64,000 bases of DNA from an uncultured Ignavibacteriales bacterium (lineage in GTDB: Bacteria > Zixibacteria > MSB-5A5 > GN15 > FEB-12): contig CAZVHP010000005.1 in assembly GCA_964627305.1 (NCBI GenBank), positions 162,458-226,457 on the forward strand. Direction: 5' to 3'. A program made the translations under genes and the position numbers. Under the pieces are notes generated by a model. The model did not search any database, was not told the origin of the DNA, and saw nothing but the letters and a program-made list of their open reading frames with translations. Below, piece after piece: positions 6,817 through 57,410 of this stretch (its first letter is position 1; each line of letters opens with the position of its first letter).

Positions 6817-7392
6817 ATGACCAAAGGAAAGACCGGCAACGATATTGACAACATGATCGTGCGGGACCTGATGATTCCCCTTGAGCAATACCCAGTGATA
6901 TCAACCGAGGCAACCCTGCTTGATGCCGTCATTGCGCTGGAGGAGTCACTGGAGGCGCTGGGGCCGAATCGTCAGCCACACCGCGCCGTCCTCGTCGCCG
7001 ACAAGAACAATCGCATAGTAGGCAAGATCGGCCAGTTGACTCTGCTCAAATCTCTTGAGCCACAGGTCGACCTGGCCGGCGATGAGGAGCGTCTGGCTCG
7101 GGCCGGCGTCAGCCCCGATCTGCTGACCACTGTCAAGAAACACGCACGGGACCTGGAACTCAATCTGTCGGACATCTGCTCCCGCGCCAGTGCCATCCGG
7201 GCTAAGGATGTCATGGTGCGTACGGCGCATTCCATCGACGCAGCCTCGCCACTTGCCGACGCCGTGCATCGGCTTGTTCAATGGCAGCAGTTGTCGTTGC
7301 TGGTTTCGGAGAAATCGCAGATAGTAGGCATCATCAGGCTGTCTGACCTGTTTGAGCTTATCGTGGACAAAATTCGGGAGCAGGCGTCTTGA
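6817..7392 (+). CDS. CBS domain pair protein
   Basis: 191 aa with two CBS-like repeats (VRDLMIP...VISTEATLLDAVIAL...AVLVADKNNRIVGKI and AKDVMVRTAHSIDAASPLADAVHRL...SLLVSEKSQIVGIIRLSDL). A GAGGA RBS precedes the ATG. Confidence 0.75.
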   Translation: MTKGKTGNDIDNMIVRDLMIPLEQYPVISTEATLLDAVIALEESLEALGPNRQPHRAVLVADKNNRIVGKIGQLTLLKSLEPQVDLAGDEERLARAGVSPDLLTTVKKHARDLELNLSDICSRASAIRAKDVMVRTAHSIDAASPLADAVHRLVQWQQLSLLVSEKSQIVGIIRLSDLFELIVDKIREQAS

Positions 7393-7411
7393 GGCCGCCG
7401 GGAGTGACACC

Positions 7412-9445
7412 ATGCCAAAAATTCTGATTGTTGACGACGAGCAAACCTTCCGAAGGAATCTTGCGGACCGCCTCAGGATGCGCGACTACCCGGTGATGGA
7501 TGTCGGTACCGGTGAAGAGGCGATTCAGGCGATCAGGCAGGACCCTGAGATAGACATTGTTCTGCTGGATTTGAAGATGCCCGGTATGCGGGGCGATCAG
7601 GTACTCAGGGAGATGAAGTCTTTCCGGCCGGAGCTTCAGGTGATCATGCTGACCGGCCACGGTTCACTGGATTCCGCCATGGAGATCGGCCGACTGGATG
7701 CCTACTCGTACCTGGCCAAACCGTGTGACCTGGAAAAGCTCCTTGAAGTAGTCAACCAGGCACGTGAGGACAAGGTGCATGTGATGGCCCGTCACGAGGT
7801 CCCGCATGTGGAGCGTGGATCGCTTTGGGCCTGGCTCAAAGGGTCACATAATTCGCGTCCGGGGATTATTCTCCTCGGAGTGTTGATTCTGCTAACGATG
7901 GCGCTCATCCCCACTCCGCAGCGATTGATGACTCTGCTGTCGGCACCGAAGACGGGGGCAATAACTGACGCCAACATGGGTTTTGCCAGCTACCGGAAGA
8001 TGCCCGACGGCCAGAACATAGCCGATTACTACGCCACCAAGTACGGAATCGGTGAGACCGTGACGGGCGATGATGGCAAGAGGGTGTTTATCCCGGCCAC
8101 TCCCGAGCAGGTTGCGTTCAAGGCACGAATCATGCTGGGGCTTCTGATCGTCGCCGCCTTGTTCTGGGCCTCCGGAGCTGTGCCGGTGGGAATCACGGCA
8201 CTGTTCGTCGGTGTCATCATGTACTTTTTCGGGATACTCAAGCCGGACGAGATAGCTGCTGCCTATGCCAAGGACGCAGTCATCTTCATTTTCGGGGTGC
8301 TGGCCATAGCATTGGCAATTAGTAAGACCGGACTTGACCGGAGAATCGGATTGCTGTTGCTGGGGCCGGCCAAAACATTGCCGCGGCTGTTGTTCATCTT
8401 CCTTCCCCTGCTGGCGATGGCGTGCTCGGTAGTTTCTGAGCACGCACTCGTGGCCTTCATTATGCCGCTGTTCATGATGGTCTATATGCTGTCCATCCGG
8501 GCCGCCGGGGTCAAGCAGGATAAAGCCCTTGCGGTGATGCTGGCCCTCATACTGTGTTACACCGCCAACTCGGGCGGGCCGGGGTCTCCGGCGGCAGGTG
8601 GGCGGAATGCCATCATGATGGGGATACTGCAGGACTACAATGTTGCACCCTCGTTCGGCGAATGGGTCATGTACGGTATGCCGTTCGTGCCGGTAATGGC
8701 CATTGTGGTCGGACTGTATTTCTATCTTGCCCTTGGTCGGAAGATCAAGGTGAAGAACCTCAATGTCTCCGCGATTGTCAAACAGGCCTCTGAGAAGATC
8801 GGCCCAATGACCCGCAACGAATACCTCACGGCCCTGGTGCTGGCCGGGGTGATAGCTCTGTGGATTGGCGCCAGCGACACTTTCGGTATGGGTGGACCGG
8901 TCATACTGGGGATTGTGACGCTGAATGTAATGCGTATTCTGAAGTGGCGCGATGTCGCCTCAATTCACTGGGAGGTGGTGGCTTTGTATGCCAGTGCCTC
9001 GGCGCTGGGAAAGGGTCTGGCCTCCACCGGCGCCGCGCTCTTCCTGGCCGACAGTTTCCTGTCAATTCTGCCTGATTTCTTCAGCCAGGGAACGGGGCTG
9101 GCGATGGCCGCGAGCCTGTTCACCGGGCTGGCGACCAATTTTATGAGCGATGGTGCCACAGTTTCTGCCATCGGCCCCATCACGGTACCAATGGCGACAA
9201 TTTCCGGCACGCACCCATGGATGGTTGGTTTTGCCACCGCGTTCGCATCTTCGTTCGCCCACATGCTGATTATCGGGACTCCGTCGAACGCCATCGCATA
9301 CGCAATGGCCAAAGACCAGCGAACCGGGGAACAACTGGTCACGCTGGGTGATTTCATGAAGCATGGAGCGGCGGTGCTCGTACTCTCGTTCCTCGTTCTG
9401 TGGTTCTGGCTGTTCCTTGGGTATTGGCAGTTTATCGGCTTTTGA
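7412..9445 (+). CDS. Response-regulator receiver domain fused to a DASS/SLC13-type anion:cation symporter
   Basis: The N-terminus MPKILIVDDEQ...DIVLLDLKMPGM...LTGHGS...KP is a REC domain. It is followed by about 520 aa of polytopic membrane domain carrying two DASS-type hairpin motifs (NSGGPGSPAAGGRNAIM and IIGTPSNAIAYA). The start is set at ATG 7412, preceded by GGGAG. Confidence 0.8.
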   Translation: MPKILIVDDEQTFRRNLADRLRMRDYPVMDVGTGEEAIQAIRQDPEIDIVLLDLKMPGMRGDQVLREMKSFRPELQVIMLTGHGSLDSAMEIGRLDAYSYLAKPCDLEKLLEVVNQAREDKVHVMARHEVPHVERGSLWAWLKGSHNSRPGIILLGVLILLTMALIPTPQRLMTLLSAPKTGAITDANMGFASYRKMPDGQNIADYYATKYGIGETVTGDDGKRVFIPATPEQVAFKARIMLGLLIVAALFWASGAVPVGITALFVGVIMYFFGILKPDEIAAAYAKDAVIFIFGVLAIALAISKTGLDRRIGLLLLGPAKTLPRLLFIFLPLLAMACSVVSEHALVAFIMPLFMMVYMLSIRAAGVKQDKALAVMLALILCYTANSGGPGSPAAGGRNAIMMGILQDYNVAPSFGEWVMYGMPFVPVMAIVVGLYFYLALGRKIKVKNLNVSAIVKQASEKIGPMTRNEYLTALVLAGVIALWIGASDTFGMGGPVILGIVTLNVMRILKWRDVASIHWEVVALYASASALGKGLASTGAALFLADSFLSILPDFFSQGTGLAMAASLFTGLATNFMSDGATVSAIGPITVPMATISGTHPWMVGFATAFASSFAHMLIIGTPSNAIAYAMAKDQRTGEQLVTLGDFMKHGAAVLVLSFLVLWFWLFLGYWQFIGF

Positions 9446-9462
9446 GATAAGGGATCGCAATC

Positions 9463-9951
9463 ATGTCGAATAGTATCAAGTTGCTTATTGTCGATGATGA
9501 AGTGAAGTTTCTGGAGTCAATCGCGCAACGACTTCAGATGCGCGACTTCGACGTCACTACCGCCACCAACGGTCCCGACGCAGTCGAGATCGCCAAGGAG
9601 GAGAAATTCGACCTGGCCCTGCTCGATCTGAAGATGCCCGGAATGGACGGCCAGCAGGTCCTGGAGATCCTCAAGAAAGAACACAGGTTTCTTGAGGTCA
9701 TCATTCTCACCGGTCACGGGTCGGTTGACTCTGCGGTGGAGTGCACAAAGCTCGGAGCGTTCTCCTACCTGCCCAAGCCGTACGAGCTGGACAAACTGCT
9801 CGAAGTGCTCCGCCAGGCTTATGAAGCGCGCCTGAACAAGAAGTTTCAGGCCGATAGCGCCCGTATGGAGAAGCTCGCCAAGATAGCCCAGGGATCCTCG
9901 CCACTGGGGATTCTTCGCGCCATGCGCGAACTGGACGACGACCAGAAGTGA
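9463..9951 (+). CDS. Stand-alone response regulator (receiver domain plus short helical tail)
   Basis: KLLIVDDE...DLALLDLKMPGMDG...LTGHGSVDSAVE...YLPKP. It has no DNA-binding output. It shares an extended C-terminal motif with the receiver at 7412. Confidence 0.85.
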   Translation: MSNSIKLLIVDDEVKFLESIAQRLQMRDFDVTTATNGPDAVEIAKEEKFDLALLDLKMPGMDGQQVLEILKKEHRFLEVIILTGHGSVDSAVECTKLGAFSYLPKPYELDKLLEVLRQAYEARLNKKFQADSARMEKLAKIAQGSSPLGILRAMRELDDDQK

Positions 9952-51055: not shown

Positions 51056-51388
51056 GTGTTAGCAGTGTCGAATTCAGCGAGTCAGGAGCTCTCCAAGGTC
51101 CTGGAGCAGGATATGGCCCGGGACAAAGTATTGGTCATCTACTTCCAGGGTTATGGCTGAGGTGGTCCCGTTCTGGGAATGGCTCTGGATGAGTCAAAGG
51201 ACCAACTCGAGGCGCTCGAATCCAACGGCATCACAGCCTATATTGACCCACGACTAAAAGAGCAGCTTGATCAGATGGGCGATATTTTTGTCGACTACCA
51301 AGATCACGGCATCGGCGCCCGCGGCTTCTCAATCCGTGTGGGTCAGGATGGCGACTGTTCTGCCAAGGGCTGTGAAGGTTGCGGCTAA
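51056..51388 (+). CDS. HesB/IscA-like protein with in-frame TGA (51158-51160) at the IscA Cys35-equivalent position; candidate selenoprotein
   Basis: Manual translation from GTG 51056 (GAGGTG RBS 8 nt upstream) gives VLAVSNSASQELSKVLEQDMARDKVLVIYFQGYG[TGA]GGPVLGMALDESKDQLEALESNGITAYIDPRLKEQLDQMGDIFVDYQDHGIGARGFSIRVGQDGDCSAKGCEGCG. The track shows only the 69-aa C-terminal piece (51179..51388). Confidence 0.65.
51168..51182 (+). promoter_or_regulatory. Candidate SECIS-like hairpin after the HesB-like TGA
   Basis: CCGUUC-UGG-GAAUGG, 6 bp including one G-U, beginning 7 nt after the TGA. Folded by eye only. Confidence 0.3.
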
Positions 51389-51418: not shown

Positions 51419-51450
51419 AGGCCCGGAGCCGACTCCGGGCCTGTTTGCTT
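51419..51450 (+). terminator. Rho-independent terminator after the HesB-like gene
   Basis: AGGCCCGGAG-CCGA-CTCCGGGCCT, a 10-bp stem, followed by GTTTGCTT. Confidence 0.65.
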
Positions 51451-51529: not shown

Positions 51530-52255
51530 TCACTGTGTCAGCACCTCCGGCTTTGTCAGCCGGGGGACGGTTTCGATGAGCAGACGGCAGGTCAACTCCG
51601 AGGCGTGTTCCAGAAACAGCACGAACTCCCCGGCTGCACCGCCCTCGGATGAGTCAGAGATAACCCTGACAACCACAAATGGGACACGGTTCATGACGCA
51701 TACCTGACCGACAGCGCCCCCCTCCATCTCCGTGGCAACCGCCCCGAACTCGCGCTGCAGGTACCGAATTCGCCGCGCATCCGCGATAAATGAATCGCCG
51801 GTGGCAATGGTCCCGACCAGGAGCTGTGAGTCCACCTCTCCCCGTTCCTCAAGCCCCTCCCAGGCTTCGCAGACAGTTCTCACCAGTCGGGGATCGGCTT
51901 CAAACATGCGGGTAAGCTCCGGGATTTCGCCGGGGCGCCGACCGAACGCTGTCAGGTCGATATCGTGCTGCACGACGAAGCTGGAAACAACCACATCTCC
52001 CTGACACAGATTCGGAACCAGGGCGCCCGCCAGTCCGGTGAAGACAACCGAGTTGACCCCGAACCGATCAATCAGAATCTGGGTGGCAACCGCGGCGTTG
52101 ACTTTTTCCACGCCGGTGCGAAGCAGGATGGCTTTGCGTTGCTCAAACGTGCCCAGATAGAAGGTGATTCCCGACTGGACGACGGTCTGCTCAATGTCAG
52201 CGTGCTGCAACAGCCGCTGAAGTTCCTCCTCGAGAGCACTAATGAGTCCGATCAT
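51530..52255 (-). CDS. mtnN: 5'-methylthioadenosine/S-adenosylhomocysteine nucleosidase
   Basis: MIGLISALEEE..., GVEKVNAAVATQILIDRFGVNSVVFTGLAGAL, ATGDSF, AVATEMEGGAVGQVC. The start is set at the internal ATG (52253-52255). Confidence 0.85.
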   Translation of the reverse strand: MIGLISALEEELQRLLQHADIEQTVVQSGITFYLGTFEQRKAILLRTGVEKVNAAVATQILIDRFGVNSVVFTGLAGALVPNLCQGDVVVSSFVVQHDIDLTAFGRRPGEIPELTRMFEADPRLVRTVCEAWEGLEERGEVDSQLLVGTIATGDSFIADARRIRYLQREFGAVATEMEGGAVGQVCVMNRVPFVVVRVISDSSEGGAAGEFVLFLEHASELTCRLLIETVPRLTKPEVLTQ

Positions 52256-52314
52256 ATCAATTTCCCCGGAAAGTTGGTTTGTCGATGTATCGGCCATTCT
52301 GCGTGATGGCTCGA

Positions 52315-53079
52315 CTATCGCGGCCGACGAGCAGCAAGGACCAGATCGCGGGATTTCCGACCAAAACGCCGGGTGAAGAGCAGATTACCAAACTTCTGTA
52401 TCGGCGAGAATCCCGCCCCCTCAGCGGCGGCGATCAGGTACTCCGGGTCGAAATTGTCGAACTCATGACGAAAGACTTCGAATGCCGGCGGCCTCTGGTT
52501 CAGATCGAGCCTTGTCACATATACTGACAAGCGGCGCCCGCGGCGTTCGCTGAATCGTTCGTAAACGATGCCTTCGTTCTCGGTAGCCTTGATGGGCATG
52601 ACCTGTCCCTCCCCTATCACGCTGTAATTGAGGGCCTGCAGCACCAGCCAGCCGCCCGGGCGGAGCACGCGCAGGAAGCTACGACAGGCCCTGCGAACAC
52701 CGTCCCGACTCCCAACACCGGTTATCGCGTTGGCAAGGCACACGACCAAATCGAACTGCTCTGTCATGTGTCGCGGCAAGGACTCGAAACGTCCGGTGAC
52801 CCACGTCACCGGCAAGCCCTCCGCATCGGGGTGATCCTTCGCTACCTGAATCATGGACGTCTGGCAGTCAAGCCCCACGGCCTCCACTTCCTGCCGGGCA
52901 AACAGCCGGGTGGTCAGGCCGCTCGCGCAGCCGGCATCGAGCACACGAGCTGGGTGAAAGCGATCGATCATCGCCTGCACTTCCCGTGCATGGTGCGTTT
53001 CACGAGCCGCGGCGTTGGTGATCAGATCGTATTCATCAGCGTAGACTTCGAAGGCGGAAGGTTGCCTGCTTCTGGTCAT
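52315..53079 (-). CDS. Class I SAM-dependent methyltransferase
   Basis: Motif I VLDAGCASGLTT, the post-I acidic residue (GLD), and LRPGGWLVLQ. Start at ATG 53077-53079. Confidence 0.8.
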   Translation of the reverse strand: MTRSRQPSAFEVYADEYDLITNAAARETHHAREVQAMIDRFHPARVLDAGCASGLTTRLFARQEVEAVGLDCQTSMIQVAKDHPDAEGLPVTWVTGRFESLPRHMTEQFDLVVCLANAITGVGSRDGVRRACRSFLRVLRPGGWLVLQALNYSVIGEGQVMPIKATENEGIVYERFSERRGRRLSVYVTRLDLNQRPPAFEVFRHEFDNFDPEYLIAAAEGAGFSPIQKFGNLLFTRRFGRKSRDLVLAARRPR

Positions 53080-53117
53080 GATTGGTCCGTTCTGTTGAAG
53101 GATCGCGTTGTCGGCTG

Positions 53118-53897
53118 TCACACACCGAGTACTTCGCGTTCGTGCTCGAAGCGAGAAGGCTTCAGCTTGATCAACCACCCCTCGCCATAGGTATCCTGGA
53201 GAGCGGCACCGGGATGGTCAACGACCCGTTCGTTGACTTCGACAACCGTGCCGGACAGGGGTGACTGCACCGGATGCGAGCGCATATCAGAGGTGAATAT
53301 CTGCATAAACACGCTGCCCTGACGGATCTCATCGCCGACAGTTGGCAAATAGACGTTCTGCACCTTGCCGATGGTCGACACGAACGCGTGCTCCACACCA
53401 AGCAGTACCAGACCGTCGGTCTGCATCACCATCCAGCAATGATCGCCAACCGAGGTGAGCCTGCCGGTCAGGCCATCGGAGGTTCTGTCAGTCGCATCGG
53501 ATTTGCCATCGACACAATCTGAGCCCCGCACCAGTTCGGCGGCACGGCCAACAACCGCCAGCAGTTCCTTTCGGGAAAATGGCTTGGCGATATAGTCGAA
53601 CGCCCCCAGTTGAGTCGCCTGCAGGGCGGTGTTGATTGTGGCATAGCCCGTAATCATGATGACCGGTATGCAGGGATGGGCCTCGCGTACTTTGCGCATA
53701 AACTCCAGGCCATCGATCTCCGGCATCATCAAGTCGGTCAGGACAATATCGATCTTCTCCCGGTCAATCACATCCAGCCCGTCCTGAGCCGACAGCACCG
53801 TCCTGATCTGGTACTCTTCTTTGCCGAGATGCTTGCTGACGCTGTCGAGCACGATTTGCTCGTCATCGACAACCAGTATGGTCATGTCGCTGGCCAT
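53118..53897 (-). CDS. Response-regulator receiver domain fused to a glycine-cleavage-H-like (GcvH-like) domain lacking the lipoyl-lysine
   Basis: REC: ILVVDDEQ...DIVLTDLMMPEIDG...ITGYAT...KP. C-terminal: GDHCWMVMQTDGLVLLGVEHAFVSTIGKVQNVYLPTVGDEIRQGSVFMQIFTSDMRSHPVQSPLSGTVVEVNERVVDHPGAALQDTYGEGWLIKLK follows the GcvH pattern, but FTSDM replaces ESVKA. Confidence 0.75.
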   Translation of the reverse strand: MASDMTILVVDDEQIVLDSVSKHLGKEEYQIRTVLSAQDGLDVIDREKIDIVLTDLMMPEIDGLEFMRKVREAHPCIPVIMITGYATINTALQATQLGAFDYIAKPFSRKELLAVVGRAAELVRGSDCVDGKSDATDRTSDGLTGRLTSVGDHCWMVMQTDGLVLLGVEHAFVSTIGKVQNVYLPTVGDEIRQGSVFMQIFTSDMRSHPVQSPLSGTVVEVNERVVDHPGAALQDTYGEGWLIKLKPSRFEHEREVLGV

Positions 53898-53918
53898 CGC
53901 CGTACCTCCATATACAAT

Positions 53919-55751
53919 CTATGCCGTAGCGGTTGGCAGAACAATCCTAAAAACAGCACCCCCGGCTCGTCCCATATCGATCTCGATCTCACCCTTATGC
54001 CGCTCGACAATACCCCAGCTCACCGCGAGACCCAAACCGTTGGTCCCCTTGGTCGAGAAGAATGGTTCGAACACCTTGTCGATCAGGTTTTCCGGAATTC
54101 CCGGACCGGTGTCCTCAACCGAGATCACACAGCGTCGGGCTCGCCTGTCGTAGTCGATGCCAATGTATATAGTTCCCTTGCCCTTCATGGCGTCGGAAGC
54201 GTTGAGCATGAGATTCAGCAGTACCTGGCTCAATTGGTGCGTGTCCCCCATGATATCAGGGATCTTCCCGCCAATCTCCTTCTCGATTCTGATATTGTGA
54301 AACTGCGGCAACCGTTCCACCAGAGACAGAGCCTGGTCGACCACCTCTGTCGGCTTCAGTCGGCTGAGCCTGGGTGCATCCTGCCGGGCGAAGTCCAGAA
54401 GATTCCTGACGATGTCGCGGCAGCGCAGAGTCTCTCTGATGATGACTTTCAGATCGACCTGGTGCGGCGAATCCTCGGGAATGTCATCGAGCATATCCTC
54501 AGCGTAGGCGAGAATACCGGTCAGGGGGTTATTGATTTCGTGCGCCACGCCGGCCGCCAGCTTTCCCAACGCTCCCAGTTTCTCTGCCTGTACCAGTTGA
54601 TCGCGAAGCTCCCGCTCGCGGCTGATATCGCGCATGATGGTACAGGTACCGGTGACAGTGCCTTCATAGTCGAACAACGGAAAGCGGACGGTCTGGAAGT
54701 AATGCGCCCGGCCATCAATCTCCACCTGCTCCTCATACGTGTGGTAGCTGTTGTCCCGGAGCACCTCCAGATCGTGCTGCTTGATTGTCCGAGCGAGGCT
54801 TTCGGGCAGGATGTCCTCGGGTCTCTTGCCCACGAAATCTTCCGGCGCACGGTGAAACGCCCTGGCGATGACCGGATTGACAATCAGGTAGCGACCCTCG
54901 AGGTCCTTGATGGAGATCCAGTCATGAGCCGAGTCAATGAAACTGCGGAAGCGATACTCGGCGCTTTGGATTTCTCGCTGCAGTCTCACTTGTTCGGTTA
55001 TCCGGTGCCAGGTGGCCAGCACCGTCTCGACCTCTCCCTCGCTGTTGAGCAGGGGCTTGCGCGTGACCTCCCAGTAGGCCTCATTGGGGGGGGCGGTGTA
55101 CCAGACCATCATCTGCGGCCGAGCATCGCGAATCACATCATCGAAACCCGGCTCGGACCGTCGACACTGCTCGGCCAGAGGTGTGTGGGCGAGAATCTCC
55201 TGACACGTCATCCCGACAACATCACGTTCGGCACGGCCGACGAATTCAGCGAAGCTCCTGTTGATGCGCAGAATCTCCCTGTCACGCCCCAGTACTACTG
55301 CCAGATCAGGCAGGCTGTCGAACAATTGCTGGAGGAACTGCCGCTCGGACTCAATCTTTCGTTCCAGCTCCGTCTTTTCGATAAGCTGTCTTTTCTGCTC
55401 TTCCTGGGCGTTGAGCAGATCCCAGAAGATGTGGGCGGTGGCGTGGTCGATCAGCTTGGTACCCGAGGGAATAATCCGATATAGCTCATCCAGTACTTCA
55501 TCGCGTCCGGTCAGCTCAATGAAAAGCTCTGCGTTCGGCAGCCACATTGCCTCTGCAAAGTCCGTGGTTGTGTAGATTGCGTTTTCTCTTGCGAACTGCA
55601 TACCGGGGGCATCATTGTCGGGATCGTGCACACATCGCACGTCAAGCGGCAACTCGCGCAGGAAACCGCCCAGCGCCAACCTGACGATCGCCCGGCAACC
55701 CCGTCCGCCCCCAATGATCACTGTTCGCAGCGGCTTGCGTTCCATCGCCAC
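53919..55751 (-). CDS. PAS-domain sensor histidine kinase with N-terminal Rossmann-like domain
   Basis: N-terminal RTVIIGGGRGCRAIV, two PAS-like segments, H-box AAGVAHEINNPL, and N/G boxes LNLMLNASDAM, DTGPGI, GLGLAVS. Confidence 0.85.
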   Translation of the reverse strand: MAMERKPLRTVIIGGGRGCRAIVRLALGGFLRELPLDVRCVHDPDNDAPGMQFARENAIYTTTDFAEAMWLPNAELFIELTGRDEVLDELYRIIPSGTKLIDHATAHIFWDLLNAQEEQKRQLIEKTELERKIESERQFLQQLFDSLPDLAVVLGRDREILRINRSFAEFVGRAERDVVGMTCQEILAHTPLAEQCRRSEPGFDDVIRDARPQMMVWYTAPPNEAYWEVTRKPLLNSEGEVETVLATWHRITEQVRLQREIQSAEYRFRSFIDSAHDWISIKDLEGRYLIVNPVIARAFHRAPEDFVGKRPEDILPESLARTIKQHDLEVLRDNSYHTYEEQVEIDGRAHYFQTVRFPLFDYEGTVTGTCTIMRDISRERELRDQLVQAEKLGALGKLAAGVAHEINNPLTGILAYAEDMLDDIPEDSPHQVDLKVIIRETLRCRDIVRNLLDFARQDAPRLSRLKPTEVVDQALSLVERLPQFHNIRIEKEIGGKIPDIMGDTHQLSQVLLNLMLNASDAMKGKGTIYIGIDYDRRARRCVISVEDTGPGIPENLIDKVFEPFFSTKGTNGLGLAVSWGIVERHKGEIEIDMGRAGGAVFRIVLPTATA

Positions 55752-55795: not shown

Positions 55796-56761
55796 TCAGG
55801 ACGAGGGGAAGTCGGCATCCAGCATATCGGTATAGTCTTCAATCACCTGTGCCATGCTCTCATAGTATCCGGTGGGCTGAATGGTGAAATGCTTCAAAAT
55901 GCGAGCCAGCCGGTCGGTGACATACGGGTATATCTTCTGCAAGTTCATGATCCGATATTCATAGAACGCTCCGGCGTCGGCGCGCGACAGACTCTTCTTG
56001 ATCTCTTCGGGGATATCCCGGCTGTCCAGCACTGACTTGAACGAGAGTATCCCCTTGGCGAGCGCATAGTTGAAGATATTCCCGATACTCCAGACATCGA
56101 AGTCCGCCACATTCTGGTTCAGGTCGAAATCGATCCACCGGAAGCAACCGGAATCCGAATCCATGATTATGTGATCGTTGCGAATATCGCCATGACACGT
56201 CCCGTTCTGGTGCAGAAACTCAATGGCCTCCAGACACGGCAGCAGCTTGCGAAGAATCCACGGGAGGTCCTGGAAGAAATACTGACGGTGCGTCTTGTTG
56301 ATGTTGTGAATCATGTTGAACAGGCTCTGCCCCCGGATGAAGTCAATCACACGAACGTGGTTACCGGCAGCATCGGTGGTCGTGTATCCCTGCATGAAGC
56401 GATGATCCCCGCGCACCAGGTCAAGCACCTGCGCTTCCTTCTCGGGACTGCGGTAGCAGTGAACGCGAAATACACCGATGTGCACGTGGAAGTCCTCGTG
56501 GAACTCTGTCTTGAGGATCTTCTGCTGACCATTGTCAAGCTGATATGCTCCCAGCACCCAGTACTTCGGCTGGTCACCAATGCCGAACCGTGTTTCATAC
56601 TTGTGGCCGGTTATGAGGAACTGCCGACCATCGAGACAGAGTACATCGCCACGCGTGATCCGCATGGTATCGGTGGTGTCCTCGATGATGTTGGGCGGCG
56701 GCACCATCGCCCAGCCCGTCAACTCCCTGATGCGCTCCGTAAGCTGCTTTTTGTCCATCAT
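55796..56761 (-). CDS. Protein-kinase-like fold protein with atypical catalytic motifs
   Basis: The catalytic-loop-like HGDIRNDHII and IDFD (in place of DFG) are present. A candidate beta3 Lys lies in QKILKTEF. There is no GxGxxG loop. Confidence 0.55.
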   Translation of the reverse strand: MMDKKQLTERIRELTGWAMVPPPNIIEDTTDTMRITRGDVLCLDGRQFLITGHKYETRFGIGDQPKYWVLGAYQLDNGQQKILKTEFHEDFHVHIGVFRVHCYRSPEKEAQVLDLVRGDHRFMQGYTTTDAAGNHVRVIDFIRGQSLFNMIHNINKTHRQYFFQDLPWILRKLLPCLEAIEFLHQNGTCHGDIRNDHIIMDSDSGCFRWIDFDLNQNVADFDVWSIGNIFNYALAKGILSFKSVLDSRDIPEEIKKSLSRADAGAFYEYRIMNLQKIYPYVTDRLARILKHFTIQPTGYYESMAQVIEDYTDMLDADFPSS

Positions 56762-56954: not shown

Positions 56955-57410
56955 TCAGCATGGGCACGGCGACGGTCCGCCGCTGAACAGAAAAGCGATC
57001 AGGTAGGTCATATCTGTGATATTGATGAGGCCGTCGCAGTTGACATCACCGTGCGCATGAAGACACGGTGCAAGACCACCACTGAAGAGGTACGCGATCA
57101 GGTAGGTCATATCTGTGATATTGATGAGGCCGTCGCAGTTCATGTCACCACGGAGAGTGCACCCACCGGAGCCGGCGGCGAAGACTTGCCAAAACCCCTG
57201 ATTGAGTGCGTAGCTGGCAGAACCGACCGTCCCCACCGCCGCCTGACCGACCGTTCCTGAAAGCGAATAGCTCGCCGATGACATACTGCCCCCACCGCTT
57301 CCGATCACGTACCAGTCGATCGTTTCACCGGTCTTGCTCTCCGCCTGCGCAGAGCCGATCAGCATCAGCAGACATGCAACGATAGCACCAGCGTTCAGAA
57401 TATGCGTCAC
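56955..57410 (-). CDS. Small secreted protein with two dockerin-like repeats
   Basis: Signal peptide (ACLLMLIGSAQA), a Gly/Ser-rich module SGGGSMSSASYSLSGTVGQAAVGTVGSASYALNQGFWQ, then GDMNCDGLINITDMTYLIAYLFSGG and GDVNCDGLINITDMTYLIAFLFSGGPSPCPC. Confidence 0.75.
   Translation of the reverse strand: MTHILNAGAIVACLLMLIGSAQAESKTGETIDWYVIGSGGGSMSSASYSLSGTVGQAAVGTVGSASYALNQGFWQVFAAGSGGCTLRGDMNCDGLINITDMTYLIAYLFSGGLAPCLHAHGDVNCDGLINITDMTYLIAFLFSGGPSPCPC
56995..57140 (-). repeat. Intragenic direct repeat: two identical 47-nt copies, 99 nt apart
   Basis: GCGATCAGGTAGGTCATATCTGTGATATTGATGAGGCCGTCGCAGTT occurs at 56995-57041 and 57094-57140. It encodes the two dockerin-like repeats. Confidence 0.9.

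Follow-up and report, generated by a model that had tools for sequence, protein, structure and literature searches.

A response-regulator family with a lysine-less H-protein-like output domain and its conserved kinase cassette in Zixibacteria

We analysed a stretch of 64,000 nucleotides (hereafter the window) of contig CAZVHP010000005.1, positions 162,458–226,457 of the forward strand (GenBank assembly GCA_964627305.1), which comes from an uncultured bacterium labelled Ignavibacteriales and placed by GTDB in the Zixibacteria. On the minus strand, positions 53118–53897 encode a regulator of 259 residues, in which a receiver domain (REC) is joined by a linker to a domain resembling the H-protein of the glycine cleavage system (GcvH) but devoid of the lysine that carries lipoate. 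As a class of response-regulator output, this REC-GcvH architecture is both large and uncharacterised, and it is widespread in uncultured bacteria. The family clearly exemplifies exaptation: in a fold that serves elsewhere as a cofactor carrier, the Lys for attachment is gone, and a new, conserved Asp/His hairpin has been acquired. Response regulators whose outputs are unknown are mostly rare oddities; this family, by contrast, has many members and spans several phyla. No description or functional study of a REC-GcvH regulator was found in the literature, although such proteins may have been listed in earlier surveys of response regulators.

Domain architecture of the regulator

The start codon of the regulator (ATG at 53897) lies 21 nt past the stop codon of an upstream histidine kinase gene, and the sequence GGAGG (53905–53909, minus strand), 7 nt before the ATG, is its Shine-Dalgarno element. 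The open reading frame and the Pfam matches define two domains. Residues 7–116 (53550–53879, minus strand) match Response_reg (PF00072) with an E value of 9.4e-31 and a score of 106.7 bits, compared with a cut-off of 30.2. The catalytic residues of the receiver (D11, D12, D55, T83, and K105) are all present, and the codon of the phosphoacceptor candidate Asp55 is at 53733–53735. They are invariant in an alignment of 120 close relatives, which are the best 120 of the 1722 homologues matched by a search with the full-length protein. These relatives have 252–269 residues and 55–100% identity to the query, all have the REC + GCV_H composition, and all come from Zixibacteria or GN15 assemblies. In a model calculated with AlphaFold2 from 120 sequences, the predicted local distance difference test score (pLDDT) of the receiver is about 85–95, and its best structural match in Foldseek is the receiver of NtrX (4d6y; template modelling score, TM, 0.93). 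On the strength of these sequence features, all of which were found wherever they could be assessed, the regulator is a member of the response-regulator superfamily.

The C-terminal part of the regulator is a barrel-sandwich domain of the GcvH type (residues 152–255; 53133–53444, minus strand). An earlier note on this DNA, written from the sequence alone, had called a GCV_H domain here, and the search with the hidden Markov model (HMM) showed that it was correct: GCV_H (PF01597) matches residues 152–255 with an E value of 1.3e-18 and 67.5 bits, well above the gathering cut-off of 22.2. The solved H-proteins agree with this assignment. A search of the PDB by sequence, with only the C-terminal 114 residues as the query, matched 13 of them, the best being 2ka7 and 1zko (E value 3e-12), which is far beyond chance. 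The identity to GcvH is 27–32%, the beta-sandwich was modelled at a pLDDT of about 80, and Foldseek superimposed it on GcvH of Thermotoga maritima (1zko) with a TM score of 0.76. The NCBIfam model for GcvH proper (NF002270) gave 69.2 bits for the regulator, which is under its cut-off of 117. No DNA-binding or enzymatic output domain was found in the regulator with Pfam.

The two domains are connected by a variable linker at residues ~126–149 (53451–53522, minus strand), which is predicted to be disordered. Its sequence and length vary between relatives in two alignments, and the pLDDT falls below 50 at residues 130–149. Because the linker appears disordered and the predicted TM score (pTM) of the whole regulator is only 0.54, the output domain is tethered to the receiver rather than packed on it, and no fixed inter-domain packing is predicted. 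A structure of the fused architecture is not present in the PDB, as judged by the sequence search and by Foldseek, which gave receiver and GcvH matches separately.

Loss of the lipoyl-lysine and the re-specialised hairpin

In H-proteins, the lipoyl-lysine is located at the tip of a hairpin within the segment E-S-V-K-A. The corresponding hairpin tip of the regulator is T202-S-D204-M205-R206-S-H208 (53274–53294, minus strand), and both the alignments with PDB entries and a MAFFT alignment with Escherichia coli GcvH place Met205 in the column of the lipoyl-Lys (here the K column; neighbouring columns are numbered from it). The earlier note had described the replacement of this Lys by the segment FTSDM. 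The loss of Lys was borne out, but the segment was not exact, because ESVKA corresponds to TSDMR with an offset of one residue. The offset is immaterial, since hairpin residues 196–211 of the window protein contain no Lys at all. An alternative Lys elsewhere in the hairpin was also sought among the 120 close relatives, and within the turn (residues 200–208) Lys occurs only at K+1, in a single sequence.

The loss is systematic. Among the close relatives, the K column is occupied by Leu (79), Met (38), Thr (2), and Phe (1), and never by Lys. In 63 of 64 divergent representatives of clusters with a fused receiver, Lys is likewise missing from this column, where Gly, Leu, Glu, Asp, and other residues are found and Lys appears once. 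A second set of 57 REC-GcvH proteins, taken as new identifiers from a profile search, contains no Lys there. The survey of REC+GCV_H architectures thus gives Lys in 0/120, 1/64, and 0/57 sequences. Its absence across the family excludes the canonical swinging-arm chemistry of lipoyl proteins, as the earlier note had maintained for this protein.

Other positions of the hairpin are strongly conserved. In the close relatives, K-1 (Asp204) is Asp in 119 of 120 sequences, K+1 (Arg206) is Arg in 101, and K+3 (His208) is His in every one, so that the family consensus reads S-x-D-[LM]-R-S-H. The second set shows Asp at K-1 and His at K+3 in 55 of 57 proteins each. In the more divergent REC-fused domains, His was observed at K+3 in 51 of 65 rows and Asp at K-1 in 35 of 65; His at K+3 is therefore present in about 80–96% of the wider family. 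Among the 16 H-proteins that contain the Lys, the same His never occurs. It is found in 17 of the 77 remaining lysine-less rows, and these 17 are mostly short proteins that are possibly truncated gene calls. In the AlphaFold2 model, predicted strands 196–202 and 207–211 flank the turn D204-M205-R206. The surrounding scaffold has been retained, including the H-protein motifs H.W, LP.xG, P.SG.V.E.N, and DP.G.GW. The C-terminal domain is conserved as strongly as the receiver, with 20 invariant positions in the 120 sequences, the hairpin His among them. Since these alignments show the His at K+3 to be invariant and the Asp at K-1 nearly so, the hairpin is re-specialised and not merely degenerate, a point that the earlier note had missed.

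This conservation bears directly on one explanation, namely that the domain is an inert relic, a decayed GcvH-like tail serving passive dimerisation or solubility in a protein that acts as a single-domain CheY-like regulator; the loss of the cofactor site and the low confidence of the predicted inter-domain arrangement would fit such a relic, but it is contradicted by a domain as well conserved as the receiver, with its 20 invariant positions, and by an architecture kept down to about 30% identity in several phyla, and we find it scarcely credible.

Size and distribution of the family

The family extends far beyond the close relatives. When the C-terminal domain alone was searched exhaustively against 1.84 billion representative proteins, 3105 matches were obtained, and an N-terminal receiver is present in 62–64 of the best 150 clusters (50% identity). 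A profile search recovered at least 1754 clusters (90% identity) at E values of 1e-10 or below among the best 8000 candidates. The members are labelled Zixibacteria/GN15, Planctomycetota, KSB1, Nitrospira, and 'Deltaproteobacteria', and the REC-GcvH architecture is retained to about 30% identity over several phyla.

The labels require some caution. Several of the loci L007–L015, with cassette genes 50–59% identical to those of the window, bear discordant NCBI labels, including Ignavibacteriales, Kapabacteria, Phycisphaerales, Hyphomicrobiales, and Bacteroidetes. These are probably automated mislabels of Zixibacteria-like metagenome-assembled genomes (MAGs); therefore, a taxonomic spread derived from such titles should be read with care. 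Annotation pipelines already name the architecture, for example as 'CheY-like chemotaxis protein/glycine cleavage system H lipoate-binding protein'. Because the products cannot bind lipoate, such automated names are misleading, and the genes should not be counted as components of glycine cleavage when metabolism is reconstructed.

The conserved three-gene cassette

The genomic neighbourhood was compared in 20 reference-genome loci that hold full-length relatives of the regulator. A histidine kinase gene lies directly upstream of the regulator in 17 of them, and in 12 a gene for a kinase-like protein of 321 residues precedes the histidine kinase. The Pfam-annotated contigs of three further members (L081/L082, L083, and L087) contain this three-gene cassette in surroundings that are otherwise unrelated. 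The conserved unit is thus composed of the kinase-like protein, a soluble histidine kinase, and the REC-GcvH regulator, and it is a self-contained cytoplasmic cassette, whose autonomy follows from the differences in flanking genes between genomes. The neighbours listed in the earlier note, a PAS histidine kinase and a methyltransferase with a nucleosidase, are all present; however, only the kinase is a conserved neighbour, and the list had missed the kinase-like gene upstream. The latter is not universal: it is missing in L013, L017, and L020, and in L011 only a 47-residue remnant matches.

The histidine kinase (53919–55751, minus strand; 610 aa) contains two PAS domains, HisKA, and HATPase_c according to Pfam. 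Its N-terminal ~125–135 residues (55347–55751, minus strand) form an additional conserved region with a VIIGGGRGC motif, in which 19 orthologues all share G14, G16, G18, and D43. Searches of Pfam and the PDB with the single sequence of this region gave no match, and a profile built from the 19 orthologues weakly matched the NAD-binding Rossmann domain of DmpF, an acylating acetaldehyde dehydrogenase (1nvm_B; E value 0.004). The match is weak, and it suggests that the N-terminus may be an NAD(H)-sensing input. In the orthologous kinase of L013 (6150–6542), a 'Bacteroidetes' MAG, the N-terminal domain is interrupted by an in-frame stop, which could be due to a pseudogene, an assembly error, or recoding.

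The first gene of the cassette (55796–56761, minus strand) encodes a divergent Hanks-type kinase-like protein of 321 aa. The Pkinase model of Pfam scored 28.8 bits, below its gathering cut-off of 31.7. The AlphaFold2 model has a bilobal kinase fold (pLDDT 89.9, pTM 0.86), for which the best Foldseek matches were PknB, Stk1, and Abl, with TM scores of 0.55–0.62 at 12–16% identity. The loop HGDIRNDH aligns with HRDIKSDN of PAK1, and IDFD aligns with the DFG motif. Compared with the canonical HRDxKxxN, the loop has Arg in place of Lys and His in place of the metal-binding Asn, and an Asn has moved to +3. The protein possesses the beta3 Lys (K84), the alphaC Glu (E109), the catalytic Asp (D192), and the Mg-binding Asp (D211); these four residues and R194, N195, D196, H197, and D213 are invariant in 46 orthologues. 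The 732 matches that make up its family bear Zixibacteria or FCB group labels, and the family has diverged in parallel with the regulator.

Distant relatives and other architectures

At lower identity, members of the family occur in settings rich in signalling and redox genes. In the complete MAG chromosome of 'Deltaproteobacteria bacterium bin23' (CP070770.1; locus L018, 1–16831), three REC-GCV_H paralogues are encoded in one cluster. Their signalling neighbours are a GAF kinase, a HAMP kinase, two sigma-54 regulators, two stand-alone receivers, and a REC-STAS protein. The redox neighbours are a CCG (HdrB-like) protein and an HdrA-like flavoprotein, and one of the three REC-GCV_H proteins is itself extended by an HdrC-like 4Fe-4S dicluster domain. 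In a Nitrospira MAG (L022, 10905–14185), the gene directly downstream of REC-GCV_H encodes a receiver fused to a NuoE-like, thioredoxin-like [2Fe-2S] protein, followed by a NuoF-like FMN/4Fe-4S subunit. This fusion indicates that subunits of redox enzymes can themselves bear receiver domains. Two further loci each contain one HAMP kinase and two REC-GCV_H genes, surrounded by Fer4, NrfD, and multihaem cytochrome genes in one (L084) and by multihaem cytochrome and formate-dehydrogenase accessory genes in the other (L085, from KSB1). No histidine phosphotransfer (HPt) domain was found among the annotated genes of the receiver-rich, kinase-poor clusters L018, L022, and L084. Locus L086 adjoins genes of 2-oxoglutarate dehydrogenase; this adjacency is not recurrent, and a link to 2-oxoacid dehydrogenases or other lipoyl enzymes was therefore rejected.

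The GcvH-like domain was also observed outside the REC-fused architecture. The metagenome protein P0127 (1391 aa) combines three copies with a GlcD-like FAD oxidase, a Fer4 dicluster, and two CCG domains. In two further metagenome proteins, the domain is the N-terminal input of a histidine kinase (P0256, 505 aa) or is fused to a domain resembling periplasmic-binding proteins (P0242, 535 aa), while P0157 carries it fused to an Fe-S dicluster. P0148 and P0140, again from metagenomes, consist of tandem copies with no other recognised domain. Most copies in these other architectures lack the Lys, and P0148 and P0242 have one copy each with Lys in the lipoyl column.

Comparison with known systems

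The regulator shares the barrel-sandwich fold and the scaffold motifs with GcvH (PF01597). However, GcvH is a stand-alone protein of ~130 aa, whereas the domain of the regulator sits behind a receiver and has, in place of the lipoyl-Lys of E-S-V-K-A, Met205 together with its own conserved Asp, Arg, and His. Neither gcvT nor gcvP is among the immediate neighbours of the regulator, which is the part of the window in which they were looked for.

Several response regulators, such as REC-STAS, stand-alone CheY-like, and CpdR-type proteins, have outputs that bind proteins and not DNA. The regulator resembles them in its canonical receiver, its adjacent cognate kinase, and an output that presumably acts through protein-protein contacts, and a REC-STAS regulator occurs together with the three REC-GcvH paralogues in the L018 cluster. 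It differs from them in that its output is an H-protein fold.

A second use of the H-protein fold in a non-metabolic role is provided by Simiate/Abitram (FAM206A), which binds actin. GcvH has been proposed as the ancestor of this eukaryotic protein, which has ~20% identity to GcvH (PMC3859600). In contrast to the REC-GcvH family, it is confined to eukaryotes and is not fused to a signalling domain.

Recruitment away from glycine cleavage is also seen in LbpA, the GcvH-derived lipoate-binding protein of the Hdr-like sulfur-oxidation systems, in which the Lys that is lipoylated is strictly conserved and two Cys residues serve as a signature (Cao et al. 2018, PMC6067878). Distant members of the REC-GcvH family (30–38% identity) are also fused or adjacent to HdrC-, HdrB-, and HdrA-like proteins. 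LbpA is nevertheless a stand-alone carrier with its Lys, whereas the regulator is a lysine-less signalling fusion, and where its cassette was inspected, in the window and in loci of Zixibacteria, no hdr genes lie nearby. Since the defining Lys is absent, the regulator is not a functional GcvH or LbpA.

Possible function of the output domain

The earlier note had proposed that the domain is a protein- or ligand-binding output controlled by phosphorylation, and this plausible proposal remains the best reading of the data. In a more specific form, in which the output is a phosphorylation-gated, non-catalytic docking module, we would give it about an even chance of being right. The histidine kinase would phosphorylate Asp55 of the receiver, as the intact catalytic residues and the adjacency of the two genes suggest. 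A flexible linker of ~25 residues ties the receiver to an H-protein fold that cannot carry lipoate, and phosphorylation of Asp55 may alter the availability or the dimerisation of this domain. The way in which an H-protein presents its hairpin to partners would be re-used, with the Asp/Arg/His hairpin docking onto a target in order to bind and regulate it post-translationally, and with no shuttling of an intermediate. Candidate targets would be the co-conserved kinase-like protein or an unlinked redox enzyme, either of the Hdr/CCG type or a flavoprotein; the latter candidates come from the contexts and fusions of the distant family members. That the same domain is combined with receivers, a histidine kinase as its input, a periplasmic-binding-protein-like domain, Fe-S domains, and the GlcD-Fer4-CCG assembly argues for a modular binding unit. 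The Hdr/CCG, NuoEF-like, and cytochrome contexts suggest that, in poorly known, uncultured bacteria, two-component signalling may act on redox and energy metabolism directly and at the post-translational level.

Several points weigh against a docking module of this kind. The kinase-like gene is gone from about one quarter of the syntenic loci, so the kinase-like protein cannot be an obligate target. The Zixibacteria cassette has no adjacent redox enzyme, and the link to Hdr/CCG proteins comes solely from relatives of 30–38% identity and may not be transferable to it. In addition, the strict conservation of a His and an Asp at the tip of a hairpin would also be compatible with a catalytic role or with the binding of a metal or a ligand, and not with docking alone.

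The last point leads to the possibility that the lysine-less fold senses a ligand, such as free lipoate, lipoamide, or a thiol, or a metal held by Asp204 and His208. The site would perhaps be the former cleft of the lipoamide arm, and a second signal would then be integrated with phosphorylation. Asp and His are typical ligands of metals and small molecules, the domain serves as a kinase input in P0256 and is fused to a periplasmic-binding-protein-like domain in P0242, and the distant members are found in redox-rich contexts, all of which would fit a sensor. However, the conserved residues are on an exposed hairpin tip with no obvious pocket in the model, the residue of the K column is variable and either hydrophobic or Gly, and the histidine kinase already has three candidate sensor domains. 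We also know of no precedent for ligand binding by an H-protein fold, and we consider ligand sensing rather unlikely.

The retained scaffold could instead mean that the domain is a decoy, which mimics the apo- or holo-H-protein and occupies an enzyme that normally recognises it (the P, T, or L protein of glycine cleavage, a lipoate ligase, LipB, or an Hdr-like CCG subunit). As a specific sub-case of the docking module, such a decoy would place the enzyme under direct two-component control. The preservation of LP.xG, P.SG.V.E.N, and DPYG.GW is consistent with such mimicry, as is the repeated fusion or adjacency of the domain to HdrC-like Fer4, CCG, and HdrA-like proteins, and a lipoylated GcvH-like protein, LbpA, is known as a partner of Hdr-like complexes (PMC6067878). 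Against a decoy, the recognition hairpin is far from that of real H-proteins (TSDMRSH compared with ESVKAAS). Neither in the window nor in the inspected loci of Zixibacteria does a gcvT, gcvP, lpd, or hdr gene lie beside the cassette, and the sole adjacency to 2-oxoglutarate dehydrogenase, in L086, does not recur. Taken together, a decoy is unlikely.

No other residue specific to the family is as conserved as the His at K+3, and this His is enriched in REC-fused members (51/65, compared with 0/16 and 17/77). His208 might take the phosphoryl group from Asp55 and pass it on, either to a target enzyme or to further receivers, so that the domain would be a phosphotransfer arm, a non-helical, beta-fold equivalent of HPt built on a swinging arm. 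Such an arm, if real, would explain both the tie between the His and the receiver fusion and the HPt-free, receiver-rich distant clusters, since L018, L022, and L084 have many receiver proteins, few kinases, and no HPt among their annotated genes. On the other hand, about 20% of the REC-fused representatives do not have the His, the Zixibacteria cassette contains no second receiver, and the modelled His208 starts a beta-strand off the extreme tip of the hairpin. To our knowledge, phosphotransfer by an H-protein fold has no precedent either, and we regard this role as highly improbable.

Downstream genes and other features of the window

Two genes follow the regulator on the minus strand. One encodes an S-adenosylmethionine (SAM)-dependent methyltransferase (52315–53079; Pfam Methyltransf_25/11), and the other encodes a methylthioadenosine/S-adenosylhomocysteine (MTA/SAH) nucleosidase (51530–52297; NCBIfam NF004079, 221 bits compared with a cut-off of 169). 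Both are lineage-specific and outside the conserved cassette. They follow the regulator in L001 alone, a GN15 relative with 87% identity, and in none of the 19 other loci compared; in the other loci inspected, the gene downstream of the regulator is convergent. The pair, at which the earlier note had hinted as context for the regulator, was therefore rejected as its functional partners. The methyltransferase frame as mechanically called (52315–53178, minus strand) starts at GTG and overlaps the regulator by 61 nt. This overlap is probably an artefact of the calling of open reading frames, because the alignment with the homologue from L001 does not begin before residue 29; the ATG at 53079 (M34) is the likely start and would leave a gap of 38 nt.

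The five genes, from the kinase-like gene to the nucleosidase gene, are co-directional and closely spaced. A scan of the operon for terminators and promoters gave no more sites than shuffled sequence, and no terminator above chance was found between the five genes. Past the end of the nucleosidase gene, a GC-rich perfect inverted repeat of 10 bp (AGGCCCGGAG...CTCCGGGCCT) occurs at 51419–51442, between that gene (minus strand) and an open reading frame of 69 aa on the plus strand (51179–51388). It may be a bidirectional terminator that closes the operon.

Just upstream of the cassette, positions 56955–57410 (minus strand) encode a protein of 151 aa, whose N-terminus resembles a signal peptide and which contains a dockerin-like repeat in two nearly identical copies (D-x-N-C-D-G-L-I-N-I-T-D-M-T-Y-L-I-A-x-L-F-S-G-G). 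Elsewhere in the window, the REC HMM of the family matched two further receiver proteins on the plus strand, at 7328–9442 (705 aa; E value 4e-24) and 9451–9948 (166 aa; E value 6e-30), both lengths being those of stop-to-stop frames.

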